DNA from: a virus
Lineage: Duplodnaviria > Heunggongvirae > Uroviricota > Caudoviricetes
DNA: 4,279 bases
Virus record (IMG/VR): IMGVR_UViG_2740892423_000004
Direction: 5' to 3' (one strand)
The notes beneath the pieces were generated by a model that was given only the letters and a program-made list of their open reading frames with translations, had not been told where the DNA came from and did no database searches. The position numbers were made by a program, and so were the translations under genes. Shown here in pieces: positions 1-4,279 of this stretch. Positions within the stretch are counted from its first letter, which is position 1, and each line of letters starts with the position of its first letter.

Positions 1-36
1 GTCGCTGTCGTTTTCAAAATCGGTGGAGCTGCATGA
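1..36 (+). CDS. Possible 3' end of an upstream CDS (5'-truncated by the window edge); product unknown, by position possibly a tail tube or other tail gene
   Basis: Frame 1 is open from base 1 to a TGA at 34-36 (…VAVVFKIGGAA*). The sequence after 36 is AT-rich and looks intergenic. An alternative frame 2 runs to a TAA at 77-79, so frame and end are uncertain. Confidence 0.25.
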   Translation, partial: VAVVFKIGGAA

Positions 37-117
37 CAAAGTCATCGGGCATTATCTGAACATAAAACACTATCAATAAGTTGGAGTCATTACCAAATAA
101 ACATATCGAATTAACTT

Positions 118-124
118 AAGAGGA
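118..124 (+). promoter_or_regulatory. Shine-Dalgarno motif (AAGAGGA) for the chaperone gene
   Basis: GAGGA at 120-124 lies 7 nt upstream of the ATG at 132. Confidence 0.5.
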
Positions 125-131
125 AACAAGA

Positions 132-440
132 ATGAATATTAATGAAATGCTGAAAGCTCTTTCTCCGAAACGCGAATCTCTGACCATCGGTGGATTCACT
201 TTCTATGCTCGCCCTATGTCAGTAAAAGAATTTAACGAACATGTTTTCAATACCGATAAAGATGACCGTGATGAACGTTCTATTCTTCGTTGTATTGAAG
301 ATGAAGACGGTAAACCAGTATTTGAATCTATGGAACAAGTTAAGGCACTGTATACTAACGTCCGCAGTGAATTAATCGGTTTGGTTGCTCAAGCGTCATT
401 GATGCAAGATCCGACAGTAATTGAAAACGAGGTAAAGTAA
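132..440 (+). CDS. Tail assembly chaperone, short form (lambda gpG-like), 102 aa
   Basis: ORF with a good RBS, sitting immediately upstream of the tape measure gene. It is small and acidic, and its last 16 nt overlap a downstream ORF in the -1 frame, which is the conserved G/GT arrangement. Function is assigned from synteny and architecture, not verified homology. Confidence 0.7.
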   Translation: MNINEMLKALSPKRESLTIGGFTFYARPMSVKEFNEHVFNTDKDDRDERSILRCIEDEDGKPVFESMEQVKALYTNVRSELIGLVAQASLMQDPTVIENEVK

Positions 441-469
441 ACCCGCTTCTGAATTTCTATTTTCGGCAA

Positions 470-811
470 ATGATGCGATCGGGGCTTAGTAAAGATGAAA
501 TGGATAATATGCCAATCACTCTGTTTTGGAAATTATACATTTTCGACACCTACTTAGAACCACAAAGCCCCGCGTTTCATGATATGCAGAATGCGATGTT
601 GCAATATTCCATGTATATGACGTCGCAAGGAATGACACGCGAAACTGCACGCAAACTCAAGCCTAGCCAATTCCAATTAATTAGAGAAGAAAAACTCTTT
701 AAAACTAAAGAAGAACTGGAAGAAATTGCACGCAAGAAAGAAGAAGAACGTAAAGCGGCAATGCTGAACATGTTTGATCCATCTTTGCTTGAGAAACTCA
801 GAAGCGGTTAA
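470..811 (+). CDS. Tail assembly chaperone frameshift extension (lambda gpT-like segment); probably made only as a -1 frameshift fusion with 132-440 (about 226 aa)
   Basis: This ORF is in the -1 frame relative to 132-440. Its frame is open from 425 (upstream stop TGA at 422-424), overlapping the end of the upstream ORF. No convincing Shine-Dalgarno precedes the ATGs at 470, 473 or 500. It ends 11 nt before the tape measure start. The charged C-terminal part is consistent with a tape-measure-binding T domain. Confidence 0.6.
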   Translation: MMRSGLSKDEMDNMPITLFWKLYIFDTYLEPQSPAFHDMQNAMLQYSMYMTSQGMTRETARKLKPSQFQLIREEKLFKTKEELEEIARKKEEERKAAMLNMFDPSLLEKLRSG

Positions 812-816
812 AGGGG
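811..816 (+). promoter_or_regulatory. Shine-Dalgarno motif (AAGGGG) for the tape measure gene
   Basis: AAGGGG at 811-816 lies 6 nt upstream of the ATG at 823 and overlaps the stop codon of the preceding ORF. Confidence 0.5.
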
Positions 817-822
817 TAATTT

Positions 823-3252
823 ATGACAAAACATATAGTAACAATAGAAGGGGATAATAAAGGTCTAAGGAGAAGTACCAATGAAGCCGCCGACCTTCTC
901 GATAGTTTGTCTGAAAAGGCAAGTAATATTGATTTTGGTGGTGGCTTATCTGGTCTGACTGGATCTCTTCGTGGGATCGCTGGCTCTGCTGGTTTGGCTG
1001 CTGGTGGTATCGGCTTAGTTGCGACCGCAGTGGTTGCAGCCGCTAAAGCTGGCGCGGAATACGTTAAACAATATTCAGAAGTATCTAAGGCGACCGGACT
1101 CTCGATTGAATCCCTTCAAAGACTGGAAAAGGAATTTTCTGGTACTGGCCTAACAGTTGAAAAATTCGGTGATATCAACAAAGACACCTTAGATAAGATG
1201 GGTGATGCATGGGCTAACGGTGGTGGTATTGCTGATGACTTAGAATCGGTTGGTCTTAAGTTAGAAAACTATGCTCACTTCATGACAGATCCGCAAGGTG
1301 GTATGAAAGCGGCGATCCAAGTGTTCTATGACATGAAGAAAGCCGGAAAATCAATGGCTGAAATCAAGTTCATGATGGAATCTTTAGCCAGTGATTCAAG
1401 CCATATGACCAGCCAGCTTGAGAAATATAATAGTGCTCAAGAGGCGATGATCGCTATTCAGAATCAATCTGTTAACGTCACCGAAGAAAACGCTAAAAAA
1501 TATGATAAATTTTCTCAGAATATTAATAAGCTGGAAAATAACCTGAAAGGCGCAGCCATGACCATTACTGGTCCTTTGGTTGATAGCTTAAACTGGTTAT
1601 TTGAATGGTTTAATATTGATTGGGAAAAGAGTTCTCTATTCAGGGCATTAGACCGTCTGAATAAAGAAGGTAAGACCGCAACTGGTGGTATTCTTAACAC
1701 CAACCATAAAGACGCTCAAAAGATTATTGACAAGTACAATAAAGAAAAGCGTTGGAATAATCTAGCAGATTGGGAAAAGGCCGCGATCCGTGGTGCTGGT
1801 GTCGATCCTCGTACTGCTGGCTTTGATGTAGAAGGATTTAAGAAACGTTTTGGTGGGTCTTATAAGAAAAATGGTGCTCTGATTGTCGTAGATGCTGGTG
1901 AACATCTGACACGCAAGGCAGATCCTAACACTGATTTAACTCTACCAAATAAACCAGTAAGACCAGAATCATTGGGTAAATCTGGCAACGAGAAGAAAGC
2001 CGAGGAAGAAGCACGCAAGAAAGCGGAAGAGGCAGCTAAAAAGGCTAAGGAAGCCGCAGAAAAAGCACAGAAAGAACGTGAGGATGCAATCAAGCGTCTG
2101 AATGCACTTGATGTTAAATTGCAAGGGCAAGTTGCAGCGTCTATTGCTTCTCAAAACAAGCAGTTAGAAGCCAGCTTGAAAGATTTGGATACTGCTTTAG
2201 ATCTGGGCTTAATCTCTCAGCAAGACGCAGCCGCGAAACGCCAATCCTTAATCGATCAGAATACTGAAAACGTATACAAGATGATTTTAGGTGCTGATCC
2301 GGTTGATGCTCTGAATGCTTTAACACAATTGCAACAAATCAGGGATAATGAGTTAGAAAGCCATAAACGGTTACTTGATGGTAAGGCTATCTCCTACGAA
2401 GAATATATGCGTCGTGTGAATGATACCGAACAAAGTTATTCGCAGATTGAAGATTCTTTGCATGGAATGGATGGTTTTAAAACCAATCAGTTGACCAATA
2501 GCTTAGACTATCAGGACTCAAATAATCCGTTTGCTAAATTTAATGCAATCGATAAAGAGAAATCGGAAGCCGAACAAGATTATAAAACCGATAAACTCAA
2601 GATTGATGGGATCACCGATCCGGCTAAACGGATGGAAGAATTAGAAAAACTCAATGAAAACCATCAAAAACGAATGGCTGCAATTGAGAAGAAATATGCT
2701 GATGCTCGCCAGTCAATAGCCGATGATATGTACGGCGGTTTTGCTGCTGCAATGACTCTCTTCGGGCAGGAAAACACTAAAGCTATGCAGATGGCTTTCA
2801 ATGCTCATAAAGCATTCTCTATCGGACAAGCGACGGTGAACATGTGGACGGCTGCTACCGATGCATGGAACGATCCGACCAACGTAACCACAGGTCAAAA
2901 AATCGCTGCTGCTGCATTGGCTGTTTCTCAGAACATGGGGAACATCGCAAACATCAAGTCTACTAACGTTAGCGGTATGGCTCATGATGGTATCGATAAT
3001 ATCCCTCGTGAGGGTACATGGTTGCTTGATAAGGGTGAACGAGTAGTTGATCAGCGTACTAACGGTGATTTGAAAGACTTCCTTGCTGCTCAAAAATCAG
3101 GCGGTGGCAACTCTCAGCCGATTGAAGTTAACGCACCTTTGAACATTAACGGCAACGTTAATAGCTCAGACAAGATGGTCATGGATGCTATCAAACGTCA
3201 CGCTAAGTTAGTTGCTCAGGCGGTAGAAGACGCACAACGCCGTAAGATGTAA
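823..3252 (+). CDS. Tail tape measure protein, 809 aa
   Basis: It is the longest ORF and sits directly after the chaperone pair. It has a Gly/Ala-rich hydrophobic segment near the N-terminus (about aa 39-80), long predicted helical charged regions including a KAEE-type low-complexity stretch (about aa 387-425), and a C-terminal region that resembles the conserved C-terminus of lambda-family tape measure proteins as I recall it. Stop is TAA at 3250-3252. Confidence 0.9.
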   Translation: MTKHIVTIEGDNKGLRRSTNEAADLLDSLSEKASNIDFGGGLSGLTGSLRGIAGSAGLAAGGIGLVATAVVAAAKAGAEYVKQYSEVSKATGLSIESLQRLEKEFSGTGLTVEKFGDINKDTLDKMGDAWANGGGIADDLESVGLKLENYAHFMTDPQGGMKAAIQVFYDMKKAGKSMAEIKFMMESLASDSSHMTSQLEKYNSAQEAMIAIQNQSVNVTEENAKKYDKFSQNINKLENNLKGAAMTITGPLVDSLNWLFEWFNIDWEKSSLFRALDRLNKEGKTATGGILNTNHKDAQKIIDKYNKEKRWNNLADWEKAAIRGAGVDPRTAGFDVEGFKKRFGGSYKKNGALIVVDAGEHLTRKADPNTDLTLPNKPVRPESLGKSGNEKKAEEEARKKAEEAAKKAKEAAEKAQKEREDAIKRLNALDVKLQGQVAASIASQNKQLEASLKDLDTALDLGLISQQDAAAKRQSLIDQNTENVYKMILGADPVDALNALTQLQQIRDNELESHKRLLDGKAISYEEYMRRVNDTEQSYSQIEDSLHGMDGFKTNQLTNSLDYQDSNNPFAKFNAIDKEKSEAEQDYKTDKLKIDGITDPAKRMEELEKLNENHQKRMAAIEKKYADARQSIADDMYGGFAAAMTLFGQENTKAMQMAFNAHKAFSIGQATVNMWTAATDAWNDPTNVTTGQKIAAAALAVSQNMGNIANIKSTNVSGMAHDGIDNIPREGTWLLDKGERVVDQRTNGDLKDFLAAQKSGGGNSQPIEVNAPLNINGNVNSSDKMVMDAIKRHAKLVAQAVEDAQRRKM
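1990..2097 (+). repeat. Purine-rich low-complexity coding tract (encodes EKKAEEEARKKAEEAAKKAKEAAEKAQKERED)
   Basis: Runs of GAA/AAG/GCA codons giving a Lys/Glu/Ala-rich, probably coiled-coil segment inside the tape measure gene. Confidence 0.6.
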
Positions 3253-3254
3253 TT

Positions 3255-3302
3255 AAAAGCCCCCATAGTCATAAATAATCATAAAACTATGGGGGCTTTT
3301 CT
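3255..3302 (+). terminator. Candidate intrinsic terminator or mRNA-stabilising hairpin (possibly bidirectional) between the tape measure gene and the next gene
   Basis: Perfect inverted repeat: AAAAGCCCCCATAGT (3255-3269) pairs with ACTATGGGGGCTTTT (3286-3300) around a 16-nt AT-rich loop, followed by TTTTCT. The A-tract before and T-tract after give the same structure on both strands. The right arm contains the GGGGG that would act as the Shine-Dalgarno for the ATG at 3303. Confidence 0.55.
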
Positions 3303-3863
3303 ATGTTCAAATCCAAGAATATTAAAATCACAGATTTTACTCTTAAATCAAAACAGCCTTTCTTCAAGGCGCAATCTATCTCCGGTAAATTTCAACGTCG
3401 CTTTACTGGCATTCATTTTTACGAAGCAGAATTTACCGCGAATTACATGGCTCAGGATATTAACGAAGTAAAAGAATTTGTAGCACGTCACCTTTTTGGT
3501 CGTCCTTTTAGTGTGCCACTGTCTTACTTTTCAAAATATACAGGTGATGTACGCCAGATGGTTACGGCTGCTGCTGGTACTGCTCGCGGTGGGCGTAAGG
3601 TGAGAATCTCCAACTTCACCGGAACACTGAAAGCGGGAACTATCATCCAGTTTGAGAACCACAAGAAAATCTACACGATCACCGAAGATGTGAAATCAGG
3701 TGGCGAAATGAAACTCTTCCCTAATTTGCGTCAGAACGTCCTGGCTGGTGAGGTGATCAAGTATCAGAACGTAGAAGGTGAATTTGTTCTCAAAACGGAA
3801 AATATCGATTGGAAGATCGCCCAGATTGGCAAGATGAAATTCGAATTAGTGGAGAATGTATAA
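3303..3863 (+). CDS. Minor tail / distal tail protein (lambda gpM-position protein), 186 aa
   Basis: ORF directly after the tape measure gene, with GGGGG 7 nt upstream of the ATG. The N-terminal roughly 80 aa show a pattern (…EF.A.Y…E..EFV..H..G.PFS…) that resembles lambda gpM as I recall it. The C-terminal roughly 100 aa is an extra domain of unknown type. Stop is TAA at 3861-3863. Confidence 0.75.
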   Translation: MFKSKNIKITDFTLKSKQPFFKAQSISGKFQRRFTGIHFYEAEFTANYMAQDINEVKEFVARHLFGRPFSVPLSYFSKYTGDVRQMVTAAAGTARGGRKVRISNFTGTLKAGTIIQFENHKKIYTITEDVKSGGEMKLFPNLRQNVLAGEVIKYQNVEGEFVLKTENIDWKIAQIGKMKFELVENV

Positions 3864-4189
3864 TGGCAACTATTCAGGAATCATTCAGCAAACTATGCAC
3901 TAATCTGGACTTCATCGAGGTATACAACGACCAGACAGGTCAGAATGTGTCTAGATTGACTCTACCGCAGCTTTTCTCTACTGGCTCGATGTTTCACATT
4001 ATCGAAGTGATAACAGCGTCAGGGGACGTTCTACGGCTTACAGATGGGTATTTCGATTTGGACTATAACGGTTTTACATATCTCGCAACGGGTGATTTTC
4101 TTCAAATCTCATCGAATACCGAAGAGAAGGAGATCAACAACAACGGGATCAACGTAACTGTTTCTAACGTTCGCGAAGAATACATTTGA
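3863..4189 (+). CDS. Minor tail protein, 108 aa (sits in the lambda gpL position; possibly corresponds only to the N-terminal part of L-family proteins)
   Basis: The ATG at 3863 overlaps the upstream stop (TAATG), and GGAG lies 8 nt upstream. The track ORF 3809-4189 is the same frame, but its start would overlap the upstream gene by 55 nt and has no RBS. Stop is TGA at 4187-4189. The functional call is from synteny plus a weak remembered resemblance. Confidence 0.65.
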   Translation: MATIQESFSKLCTNLDFIEVYNDQTGQNVSRLTLPQLFSTGSMFHIIEVITASGDVLRLTDGYFDLDYNGFTYLATGDFLQISSNTEEKEINNNGINVTVSNVREEYI

Positions 4190-4216
4190 AGTGGTTTACT
4201 GAATTTGGCCACCTGA

Positions 4217-4265
4217 ACAGAGGTGATATGCTCACCTCAGAACAACACAGGTGCCATAATGAAAA
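4217..4265. other. Nested inverted repeats in the spacer between the 108-aa gene and the next gene
   Basis: Inner stem GAGGTGA (4230-4236) pairs with TCACCTC (4242-4248) around a 5-nt loop TATGC. Outer arms CACCTG (4220-4225) and CAGGTG (4258-4263). There is no following T-tract, so it is not a typical intrinsic terminator. Confidence 0.5.
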
Positions 4266-4268
4266 AAA

Positions 4269-4279
4269 GAAATTTCAGC
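4269..4279 (+). CDS. Start of the next CDS (3'-truncated by the window end); product unknown, by position a further tail-tip gene
   Basis: ATG at 4269 (MKKRNFS…) with AGGTG 5 nt upstream. An alternative start is the ATG at 4238 in another frame (MLTSEQHRCHNEKKKFQ…), with AGAGG 4 nt upstream. Too little sequence to decide. Confidence 0.25.

Follow-up and report, generated by a model that had tools for sequence, protein, structure and literature searches.

Layout of the locus

The window (the whole stretch of DNA analysed here, 4,279 nucleotides) carries the following pieces and genes, all read in the same direction.

1-94, plus strand: right end of IS1, comprising the 3' end of insB, its stop TAA at 77-79, and the terminal inverted repeat ...GGAGTCATTACC running to 94
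95-4186, plus strand: fragment of an E. coli prophage tail module, 4,092 bp, recognised by its identity to E. coli genomes
132-811, plus strand: tail assembly chaperone pair, ORF 132-440 (102 aa) followed by ORF 470-811 in the -1 frame
823-3252, plus strand: tape measure protein, 809 aa, called "phage tail tape measure protein" by RefSeq at the identical locus
3303-3863, plus strand: distal tail protein (Dit, M-position), 186 aa, matching phrog_1302 "distal tail protein" with E = 1.5e-16
3863-4186, plus strand: codons 1-108 of 217 of the hub gene (gpL-like, DUF2163/PF09931), truncated, as aligned to intact loci
4187-4279, plus strand: left end of ISEc52 (IS3 family), IS nucleotides 1-93 of about 1,250

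The first 94 nucleotides are 97-99% identical to annotated IS1 copies in P1, SfIV, RCS47 and others in the phage collection, and homology to intact prophages starts only at position 95. From there to 4186 the window holds the chaperone pair, the tape measure, the distal tail protein and the first half of the hub gene. This fragment is 100% identical to positions 2478175-2482266 of the E. coli HCP5S3_I4 chromosome; its identity to the other 24 genomes listed is 95.6-97.3%. In all, 50 genomes contain 80% or more of the window. The genome matches stop at 95 and 4186 in all of them except H28, where the place extends to query position 1 by way of a separate IS1A piece.

The chaperone pair gives weak Pfam matches to PF16459 (Phage_TAC_13) and PF06223 (Phage_tail_T), and from reading the sequence, A_AAG at 434-437, immediately 5' of the stop of ORF 132-440, is a likely slippery site. 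The distal tail protein has a weak match to PF21430 (pb9 B domain). The phage part of the window had no match in the plasmid collection. In the phage collection, matches at the DNA level were confined to the two IS ends, and the single distant protein match was to phage DCP80, at 43.5% identity. Taken as a whole, the window is what is left of a defective prophage, with IS1 at one end and ISEc52 at the other.

Interruption of the tail-tip hub gene

The sequence-only reading had drawn attention to an ORF that ends after 108 aa, at a place where lambda-like tail modules would be expected to encode a protein of about 230 aa. Both points were borne out. The ORF (3863-4189) has 108 codons and a TGA, and its ATG at 3863 shares one base with the stop of the preceding 186-aa gene (TAATG). 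The intact gene, represented by loci L001 and L002, is 654 nt long and encodes 217 aa, which is similar in size to lambda gpL (232 aa), its structural match. The gene is uninterrupted in all 56 complete E. coli genomes that carry it, and alignment to these relatives, which had been proposed as a check, recovers a single 217-aa ORF across the junction.

The identity between the window and the intact loci ends exactly after ...GAATACATT (codon 108). At this breakpoint the intact loci read ...GAATACATT followed by AGCCTGATTCG..., while the window reads ...GAATACATT followed by TGAAGTGGTTTACTG... The next codon is supplied by the mobile element.

4187-4189, plus strand: TGA stop of the truncated ORF, which is IS bases 1-3 (5'-TGAAGTGG...), from the alignment with intact loci

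The ORF is 108 aa long because the first three bases of the IS (TGA) end its frame. The sequence from 4187 to 4279 is 100% identical to copies that carry the RefSeq name "IS3-like element ISEc52 family transposase", among them one in E. coli Nissle 1917; there are 951 records with matches of at least 99% identity, and every ISEc52 copy starts with these 93 nucleotides. We are highly confident that a copy of ISEc52 sits in the tail-tip hub gene of this E. coli prophage, immediately behind codon 108 of the gene's 217, and nothing in any of the analyses reported here contradicts this as the main claim. The suggestion that the gene is interrupted was therefore right in kind, although the agent is a whole IS and not a point mutation, a frameshift or a scar.

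The base-exact switch to ISEc52 excludes a group I intron or homing-endonuclease insertion, a pseudogene made by frameshift or point mutation, and a programmed split gene.

It had also been proposed that the 108-aa ORF is a genuinely small tail protein, or one half of a gene split into two ORFs, with the spacer acting as a phage regulatory element. The ORF does have a coupled start and lies in the right place in the tail module, and several public contigs seem to encode exactly 108 aa. Most of these do not hold up, however. Contigs L086, L088, L089 and L091 end at ...ATTA, whose last base agrees with the intact gene; L087 stops one base earlier, at ...ATT. All five are contig breaks at a variant branch point, and are neither stops nor IS junctions. 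An exact look-up gave one genuine contig matching the exact 108-aa product, L084; the last 53 nt or so of this contig have no match in ISEc52 or in any complete E. coli genome. The relatives carry the unbroken gene, and the spacer and next start are entirely ISEc52, the downstream start being that of its orfA. In a profile search the 108-aa product scores 18 bits against PF09931, under the cut-off of 26, and lacks half of the predicted domain, while the full-length 217-aa relative reaches 26.3 bits. The distant homologues (best 150 of 171 at E <= 0.001) are mostly about 175-230 aa long, and many align over nearly their full length. Both the small-protein and the split-gene readings are refuted by these comparisons, and we give a stand-alone or half-gene product practically no credence.

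The junction might instead be a chimera made during assembly, in a short-read contig that ends in a repeat, with the gene really intact. The window resembles a draft contig, each of its ends being about 94 nt of a high-copy IS, and the unmatched end of L084 can be counted on the same side. Assemblers normally end contigs inside repeats at true IS junctions. Moreover, both junctions recur in a contig that has a record of its own and covers a different extent (JRQF01000212.1, from GCA_000768125.1); it agrees with the window over 4,202 nt with 0 mismatches. The break also falls, to the very base, where the IS begins with its true terminal TG, which is expected of transposition and not of a random mis-join. 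We consider a chimera very improbable.

The preferred reading is an insertion of ISEc52. The window ends inside the IS, with the right end of the element and the other half of the hub gene lying beyond it, and both a simple insertion and an IS-mediated deletion or rearrangement fit what it shows. In a simple insertion, about 1,250 bp of ISEc52 ending ...GACCACTTCA would be followed by ATT (or CATT) and then AGCCTGATTCGAAAC... An exact scan for the left junction gave 0 matches in genome_contigs and in metagenome_contigs, and the predicted right junction (...CCACTTCA+ATT+AGCCTG, with a duplication of 3-4 bp) likewise gave 0 matches in the scans.

Fold of the hub protein and probable effect of the truncation

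The hub gene product matches phrog_2048 (tail protein), and several of its orthologues are named "DUF2163 domain-containing" or "baseplate hub domain-containing" in RefSeq. A search of PDB sequences with the 217-aa protein gave no match at E <= 10, and the Pfam family of lambda L matched neither the fragment (E <= 1) nor the full-length protein (E <= 0.01).

A fold search was made with Foldseek, using as query not the truncated product but the AlphaFold model of a 189-aa homologue (residues 29-217, pLDDT 87). It matches T5 pb3 (E = 6e-7), chain 6tba_7A of the RcGTA virion (5.5e-5), which we take to be the RcGTA hub protein, and chain L of the lambda tail tip (1.5e-4). There were further matches to baseplate chains of DT57C and R4C and to JBD30, and the Foldseek probability was 1.00 for all of those named. 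The modelled fold matches that of lambda gpL, the N-terminal domain of T5 pb3 and the RcGTA hub, with a TM score of about 0.5 (query-normalised) and E values of 6e-7 to 1.5e-4, although the sequence identity is just 12-18%. All of them occupy the same place, after the distal tail protein and before the J-like tip protein. Downstream of the 217-aa gene the intact loci have a DUF6950 gene and then one for a 1,258-aa protein with PF09327, PF12421 and PF13550 domains, and the order tape measure, distal tail protein, hub and J-like tip is found complete. The window keeps this order only as far as the break.

On this modelled fold, the hub protein is the structural counterpart of lambda gpL. Lambda gpL has a C-terminal iron-sulfur cluster held by four cysteines. 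The 217-aa protein, whose only two cysteines are C12 and one in ...DDECKN..., cannot hold such a cluster. The likeness to gpL is limited to fold and position.

The truncation point corresponds to residue 80 of the model, ahead of strands 92-100, 107-127 and 132-142. As judged from the model, the truncated protein would lack three long core β-strands and the C-terminal helices of a single-domain fold, and it is therefore almost certainly non-functional. The prophage would then be unable to make a tail tip.

Insertion of these elements into phages is not new: IS911 is found in Sf6, the same IS end in Salmonella phage SEN22, and IS1 in P1, all within phage or prophage genomes. The present case differs from these in that the target is the structural gene for the tail hub, that a second IS bounds the fragment, and that the outcome is a remnant and not a viable phage.

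The left end of ISEc52

The last 93 nucleotides of the window contain a set of overlapping elements.

4187-4222, plus strand: left terminal inverted repeat (IRL, about 36 bp), the transposase-binding end, from alignment of IRL with IRR in the Nissle copy
4205-4232, plus strand: putative weak resident promoter (pIRL-like), from reading the sequence
4210-4253, plus strand: nested inverted repeats, two nested pairs of arms with the loop TATGC at 4227-4231
4249-4279, plus strand: Shine-Dalgarno AGGTG (4249-4253) and start of orfA, ATG at 4259, MKKRNFS..., of which 7 codons lie in the window

Thus 4187-4258 is the left inverted repeat of the IS together with the orfA leader, and the ATG at 4259 is the start of orfA, which encodes the small HTH protein of ISEc52. 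The new start (4259-4261) and the nested repeats CACCTG…GAGGTGA-TATGC-TCACCTC…CAGGTG had been located correctly by the sequence-only reading. The spacer, given there as about 80 nt, is in fact 69 nt from stop to next start, and the spacer, palindromes and start do not belong to the phage as had been supposed.

In Nissle 1917 ISEc52 is 1,250 bp long, has TG...CA ends, and is flanked on both sides by a 3-bp repeat, GTT. It encodes an orfA of 100 aa that matches PF01527 (HTH_Tnp_1) with E = 6e-14. The A_AAA_AAG frameshift site of the reference copy (at about 2123-2130 of L003) lies beyond the reach of the window. Elements of the IS3 family typically have imperfect terminal inverted repeats of about 36-40 bp that begin 5'-TG and end CA-3', a target duplication of 3 bp (occasionally 4 bp) on either side, and an orfB for a DDE catalytic domain, to which programmed -1 frameshifting at A_AAA_AAG gives access. 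Contigs that consist only of the IS (1,249 nt) have orfA 72 nt from the end, as the window does. Compared with the annotated E. coli copies in RefSeq, the window has the same TG terminus, the same 72-nt distance from end to orfA and the same first 7 orfA codons, with no difference within the 93 of about 1,250 bp that are visible. The Nissle element ends ...CCACTTCA, and the window has TGAAGTGG... at 4187. The bases common to IRL and IRR in the Nissle copy are TGAAGTGGT..AC..AA..TGGCCACC.....AGAG.

The model element of the IS3 family is IS911 of Shigella dysenteriae. The left end in the window is 92.6% identical to that of the IS911 in phage Sf6, and the core of the nested hairpin is identical. 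By the usual 95% rule, ISEc52 is a named element distinct from IS911. The differences include IS nucleotides 9-13 (TTTAC in ISEc52, CACAC in IS911) and the spacer between Shine-Dalgarno and AUG (CCATA and CTCCA, respectively). IS911 has 36-bp inverted repeats, a 100-aa OrfA, the A_AAA_AAG frameshift and a pIRL promoter (PMC2909936), all with counterparts in ISEc52, where the promoter is putative.

Structure and conservation of the nested hairpin

The inner arms, GAGGTGA (4220-4226) and TCACCTC (4232-4238), are complementary at 7/7 positions around the 5-nt loop TATGC. The outer arms are CACCTG (4210-4215) and CAGGTG (4248-4253), and can be extended to 13 nt at 77% complementarity (4203-4215 with 4248-4260). 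An ATG does lie in the apical loop, as had been noticed, but at 4228-4230 and not at 4238, a slip of 10 bases. This ATG does not share the frame of the ORF downstream, and in complete copies of the IS it begins an ORF of just 20 codons.

The RNA from 4187 to 4279 is predicted to fold with -23.6 kcal/mol, compared with -16.1 +/- 2.9 for shuffled sequences (z = -2.64), and 3 of 200 shuffles folded as well. Among 54 distinct IS911-like left ends, the columns of the inner hairpin (IS nt 34-52) have a mean identity of 99.1%; the figure is 99.2% for IS nt 14-36, which enclose the 5' outer arm, and 92% for CAGGTG, the 3' outer arm (IS nt 62-67). In this set the hairpin region is better conserved than the sequence flanking it and the first codons of orfA. 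When the whole window was scanned against Rfam (E <= 1), no family matched. A scan of 3800-4279 for promoters and terminators found none at threshold, so that the hairpin is not an intrinsic terminator.

The putative promoter falls under the threshold of that scan. It consists of a -35 TTGGCC (4205-4210), a 16-bp spacer and an extended -10, TG-A-TATGCT (4224-4232), with 8 of 12 consensus matches plus the TG motif, and the loop ATG lies inside its -10 hexamer.

Possible roles of the hairpin

The 3' arm of the hairpin covers the orfA Shine-Dalgarno, which makes a block of orfA translation on read-through transcripts plausible. We put forward tentatively, as a possibility a little short of even, that the nearly invariant hairpin is an RNA device that hides the orfA ribosome site on transcripts reading in from outside, and spares the element's own transcript with its short leader. 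The 5' outer arm lies within the transposase-binding part of IRL, and the 3' outer arm is the Shine-Dalgarno itself. With the -10 of the putative weak promoter in the inner loop, RNA made from that promoter would begin past both 5' arms, and its ribosome site would be open. RNA that enters from the tail operon would carry both arms, and the site would be buried. The net effect would be to shield the synthesis of transposase from transcription that begins elsewhere, a kind of control found in IS10, IS50 and IS200. The folding model is consistent with this scheme in that the predicted unpaired probability of the Shine-Dalgarno is at most 0.11 for transcripts starting at or upstream of the IS end, while for a start at 4239 its first three bases are unpaired at 0.96, 0.45 and 0.44. 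Against the scheme, the last two bases are predicted to be paired with a downstream segment even with that start.

IS10 and IS50 are known for fold-back inhibition of transposase translation. In IS200, sequestration of the Shine-Dalgarno is documented (PMC4513863). The leaders of these elements likewise have an inverted repeat at the left end with a 3' arm over the Shine-Dalgarno, which in the present case is a predicted fold; they differ from the ISEc52 end in that here there is no terminator-like element, no Rfam family and no evidence of antisense RNA. The literature search found no mapped transcript start for pIRL, and no published analysis or functional test of the left-end hairpin of the IS911 family.

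The earlier idea that the palindromes are a protein-binding site or an RNA control was reasonable, except that they would serve the genes of the transposon and not the tail gene. They could well act at the DNA level only, as an inner part of IRL bound by transposase or as a promoter and operator at the -10, the RNA hairpin being incidental; to this we assign a probability somewhat below one half. IRL holds the 5' arm of the outer helix, inside the block common to IRL and IRR (TGGCCACC). The 36-bp inverted repeats of IS911 are the binding site of OrfAB, as found with OrfAB[1-149] (PMC2909936). In IS2, the region just inside IRL carries both an analogous extended -10 promoter, PIRL, and an operator for OrfA (PMC3299598). 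There is also no covariation in the stems: across 19 pairs and 54 sequences there were 0 two-sided changes, the values equal those of shuffled controls, and the stems are almost invariant, so that the conservation is equally explained by DNA-level constraints such as transposase binding or a promoter. On the other hand, IRR has neither the inner palindrome nor the CAGGTG arm, yet both of these are as conserved as the inverted repeat proper, and OrfA of IS911 is not a promoter repressor (PMC3299598).

Some of the rare changes bear on pairing. Where inner-stem positions depart from the commonest letter, 7 of 9 cases keep the pair in plus-strand RNA, and a common A-to-G change in the 3' outer arm (22 sequences) keeps pairing by turning U-A into U-G. 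In the outer helix 4 of 9 pairs lose pairing, in one or two sequences each. The pair-keeping changes are weak evidence for an RNA role because transitions are also the commonest mutations.

The proposal that the hairpin acts selectively on read-in transcripts has a further difficulty. The circular intermediate of IS911 carries a strong junction promoter, the start of which is expected near IS nt 21. Reading of the sequence suggests a corresponding promoter here, in which TTGACC of IRR and TTTACT (IS nt 9-14) would stand 17 bp apart across a 3-bp junction, and which would start transcripts at that same point, just 5' of the 5' arm. Junction-promoter transcripts should therefore hold the whole hairpin, which is a misfit with a purely insulating role. 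The hairpin might then act on all orfA transcripts, including those from the circle junction, either by damping translation in general or, as a 5' stem-loop, by making the mRNA more stable. In the fold computed from 4205 most of the Shine-Dalgarno remains paired, in agreement with this, but the folds vary with the length of downstream sequence included, and we regard such a general role as unlikely.

Significance

In annotation, the 108-aa ORF should be treated as a pseudogene, a fragment of the tail-hub gene that ISEc52 has disrupted. Beyond this correction the insertion has little importance. It does carry a caution, namely that a short ORF, a palindrome or an apparent new start close to the end of a draft contig often turns out to belong to the terminus of an insertion sequence. 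If the role proposed for the hairpin is true, it would be an IS3-family counterpart of the controls found in IS10, IS50 and IS200.

A prophage tail module between two insertion sequences

The middle of the window is prophage. Positions 95-4186 match the E. coli HCP5S3_I4 chromosome at 100% identity and the 24 other listed genomes at 95.6-97.3%, and 50 complete E. coli genomes contain at least 80% of the window. All listed matches end at 95 and 4186, with the exception of H28, where a separate IS1A piece carries the match to query position 1. The prophage family occurs in 56 of 5,426 complete E. coli genomes (about 1%), mostly pig-derived. Megablast of the window against phage records gave matches at the two ends only. 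Positions 1-94 are 97-99% identical to annotated IS1 in P1, SfIV and RCS47, and the other end (4185/4187-4279) is an IS3-family element: Salmonella phage SEN22 carries a 100% identical stretch labelled 'transposon', and IS911 in Sf6 is 92.6% identical. Since the left edge is an IS1 end, the tail-module fragment is bracketed by two different insertion sequences. Its five ORFs all have the same orientation.

Features of the tail module and its left edge
1-94, right end of IS1, with the insB stop codon at 77-79 and the terminal repeat up to 94
132-440, tail assembly chaperone ORF 1, 102 aa (profile search)
470-811, tail assembly chaperone ORF 2, 113 aa, -1 frame (profile search)
823-3252, tape measure protein, 809 aa (profile search)
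3303-3863, distal tail protein, 186 aa (phrog_1302, E = 1.5e-16)
3863-4189, truncated hub ORF, 108 aa plus TGA (partial matches to phrog_2048 'tail protein' and to PF09931)

The IS1 end adjoins prophage intergenic DNA, 5 nt past the stop of the gp38-like gene of intact relatives. The chaperone ORFs have a 0/-1 frame relationship (420-445), the -1 frame being closed until a TGA at 422-424. An A_AAG motif at 434-437, immediately 5' of the TAA stop of the first ORF, looks like a possible G/GT-type programmed -1 frameshift site. A terminator-like stem-loop (AAAAGCCCCCATAGT...ACTATGGGGGCTTTT, 3255-3300; -25.6 kcal/mol, z = -6.1) sits inside the tail operon, after the tape measure stop and ahead of the distal tail protein start, and is also present in intact prophages.

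The hub gene is interrupted by ISEc52

The sequence-only reading had listed an interrupted gene among several readings of the 108-aa ORF, and had proposed looking in relatives for a single longer ORF across the junction. The gene is interrupted, and relatives do have the longer ORF: the ORF starting at 3863 is 654 nt (217 aa) in intact E. coli genomes, and is in one unbroken piece in all 56 complete genomes having the gene, while the window switches to ISEc52 after codon 108. In the alignment, ...GAA TAC ATT AGC CTG ATT... of the intact loci stands against ...GAA TAC ATT TGA AGT GGT... in the window; the alignment is base-exact across the break, so that the insertion sequence supplies, in its first three bases, the stop of the hub frame. 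Among the best 150 of 171 distant homologues (E <= 0.001, library of 1.8 billion proteins), most measure about 175-230 aa, and many of the alignments cover almost the full length. A protein search of 50,697 phage records found one distant relative only, in phage DCP80 (43.5% identity). RefSeq labels the intact gene hypothetical, 'DUF2163 domain-containing' or 'baseplate hub domain-containing', and its start-codon calls differ, giving 217, 189 or 175 aa. A DUF6950 gene follows, then the gene for a tip protein of 1,258 aa that has lambda-J-type domains.

Positions 4187-4279 are 100% identical to RefSeq 'IS3-like element ISEc52 family transposase' elements in complete E. coli genomes, where 951 records match at 99% identity or more. 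The copy in E. coli Nissle 1917 is 1,250 bp long, starts TGAAGTGGTTTACTG..., ends ...GACCACTTCA and is bordered by a 3-bp GTT repeat. Its first gene, orfA (100 aa; PF01527, E = 6e-14), opens with MKKRNFS at a distance of 72 nt from the left end and is followed by an A_AAA_AAG frameshift motif; the same 72-nt offset is seen in 1,249-nt IS-only contigs from several genera. The break is at the true IS terminus, to the base.

The exact 108-aa product is also recorded in contig JRQF01000212.1 (assembly GCA_000768125.1), which has both IS junctions of the window, agrees with it over 4,202 nt without a mismatch and has different ends of its own. We regard the phage/ISEc52 junction as real. In this contig about 151 nt of ISEc52 give way to 53 nt (TACCAACCAGCCCTAACTAATCC..., its positions 4261-4313) with no match in ISEc52 or any complete E. 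coli genome, which is either a second IS interruption or an assembly-end artefact.

Further contigs listed with a '108-aa' product were rejected as real short products. Five were compared, two lacking an exact anchor being left out: four end ...ATTA, their last base being that of the intact gene, and one breaks off a base sooner, ...ATT, so that they stop one base past the insertion point or exactly at it. Intact prophage variants diverge right after codon 108 (AGCCTG against ACTCTC, 10093-10100 in two intact E. coli loci, L001 and L002), and these ends are therefore assembly-graph breaks, not stop codons.

It is concluded that ISEc52 is inserted into a prophage structural (hub) gene, inside a prophage remnant that has IS1 at its other visible edge. 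The far side of ISEc52 lies outside view, scans for either junction in one-genome-per-species contigs and JGI metagenomes having given no match, and a simple insertion and an IS-mediated deletion therefore fit equally.

Fold of the hub protein

The profile search of the 108-aa product proposed earlier did recover tail families, but the match to PF09931 ('baseplate hub N-terminal attachment domain') scored 18 bits, short of the cut-off of 26. For a 189-aa orthologue, corresponding to residues 29-217 of the full protein, an AlphaFold model with a mean pLDDT of 87 shows one beta-rich domain. In model numbering the break is at residue 80, ahead of the three longest strands (92-100, 107-127 and 132-142) and the C-terminal helices, and the truncated product is, on this model, half of one domain.

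Foldseek against the PDB with this model matched siphophage baseplate-hub proteins: T5 pb3 (E = 6e-7), DT57C and R4C baseplate chains, JBD30, the RcGTA virion chain 6tba_7A (E = 5.5e-5), which we take to be a hub protein, and lambda tail-tip chain L (232 aa, E = 1.5e-4). The protein thus resembles lambda gpL in fold and gene order, and here the earlier assignment to the L position, with a size of about 230 aa, stands. It does not extend to the sequence family: the Pfam search gave no lambda L match, the PDB sequence search gave no match at all, and the protein has two cysteines only, which places it outside that family by sequence.

The ISEc52 leader hairpin

The nested inverted repeats described earlier are indeed present. 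The ATG said to lie in their loop at 4238 is actually at 4228-4230, and the next ATG after the spacer, at 4259, is the orfA start.

Features of the ISEc52 left end
4187-4222, left inverted repeat (IRL), IS nt 1-36
4210-4215 and 4248-4253, outer arms CACCTG and CAGGTG, extendable to 13 nt
4220-4226 and 4232-4238, inner arms GAGGTGA and TCACCTC, loop TATGC
4205-4210 and 4224-4232, candidate weak promoter, TTGGCC, 16 bp, TG-A-TATGCT (sequence reading)

As RNA, the 93 nt 3' of the ORF have a predicted fold of -23.6 kcal/mol, with z = -2.64 relative to shuffled sequences. On the 3' side, the outer arm CAGGTG includes the likely Shine-Dalgarno sequence AGGTG, 5 nt 5' of the orfA ATG. The candidate promoter has 8 of 12 consensus matches plus the TG, which is under the promoter-scan threshold, and a scan of the region reported nothing. 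It resembles the extended -10 promoter PIRL of IS2, just inside IRL (PMC3299598). If it is correct, the loop ATG lies within the -10 hexamer and the resident transcript would start near 4239, past both 5' arms.

In partition-function folds the Shine-Dalgarno sequence is unpaired at 0.11 or less in transcripts starting at the IS end or the tail gene; with a 4239 start, its first three bases are unpaired at 0.96, 0.45 and 0.44. Transcripts from outside would fold the 3' outer arm and hide the site, while the resident transcript, without the 5' arms, would leave more of it free. IS10 and IS50 use the same sequestration logic. It has also been shown for IS200 (PMC4513863). We tentatively prefer the reading that the hairpin insulates orfA from outside transcripts, at slightly under even odds.

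Across 54 distinct left ends of IS911-like elements, taken from many Enterobacterales, column identity is about 99% in the hairpin region, against 73% at IS nt 9-13, 81% in the SD-AUG spacer and 94% in the first orfA codons. None shows a compensatory change, and pair statistics equal those of shuffled controls, so the conservation may be at the DNA level only. A purely DNA-level role is almost as likely as the insulator reading. The 36-bp repeats of IS911 are bound by the N-terminal part of the transposase (PMC2909936), and IRL and IRR, the right inverted repeat, share TGAAGTGGT..AC..AA..TGGCCACC.....AGAG, so that there is overlap between the transposase-binding block and (C)CACCTG, the 5' outer arm. 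One Sodalis sp. MAG holds dozens of diverged IS911-like copies, many with CGGGTG for CAGGTG in the SD arm, keeping a U-G pair. A caveat on the insulator reading is that the strong circle-junction promoter of IS911 should start near IS nt 21, and its transcripts would carry the whole hairpin. That the hairpin is a general damper or stabiliser seems unlikely.

ISEc52, IS1, insertion into a prophage gene and the disrupted hub family are all well known, and the observation that began this analysis was correct but ordinary. Control of translation by the invariant leader hairpin of the IS911 family, if it exists, would be a minor point on the insertion sequence and not on the phage.
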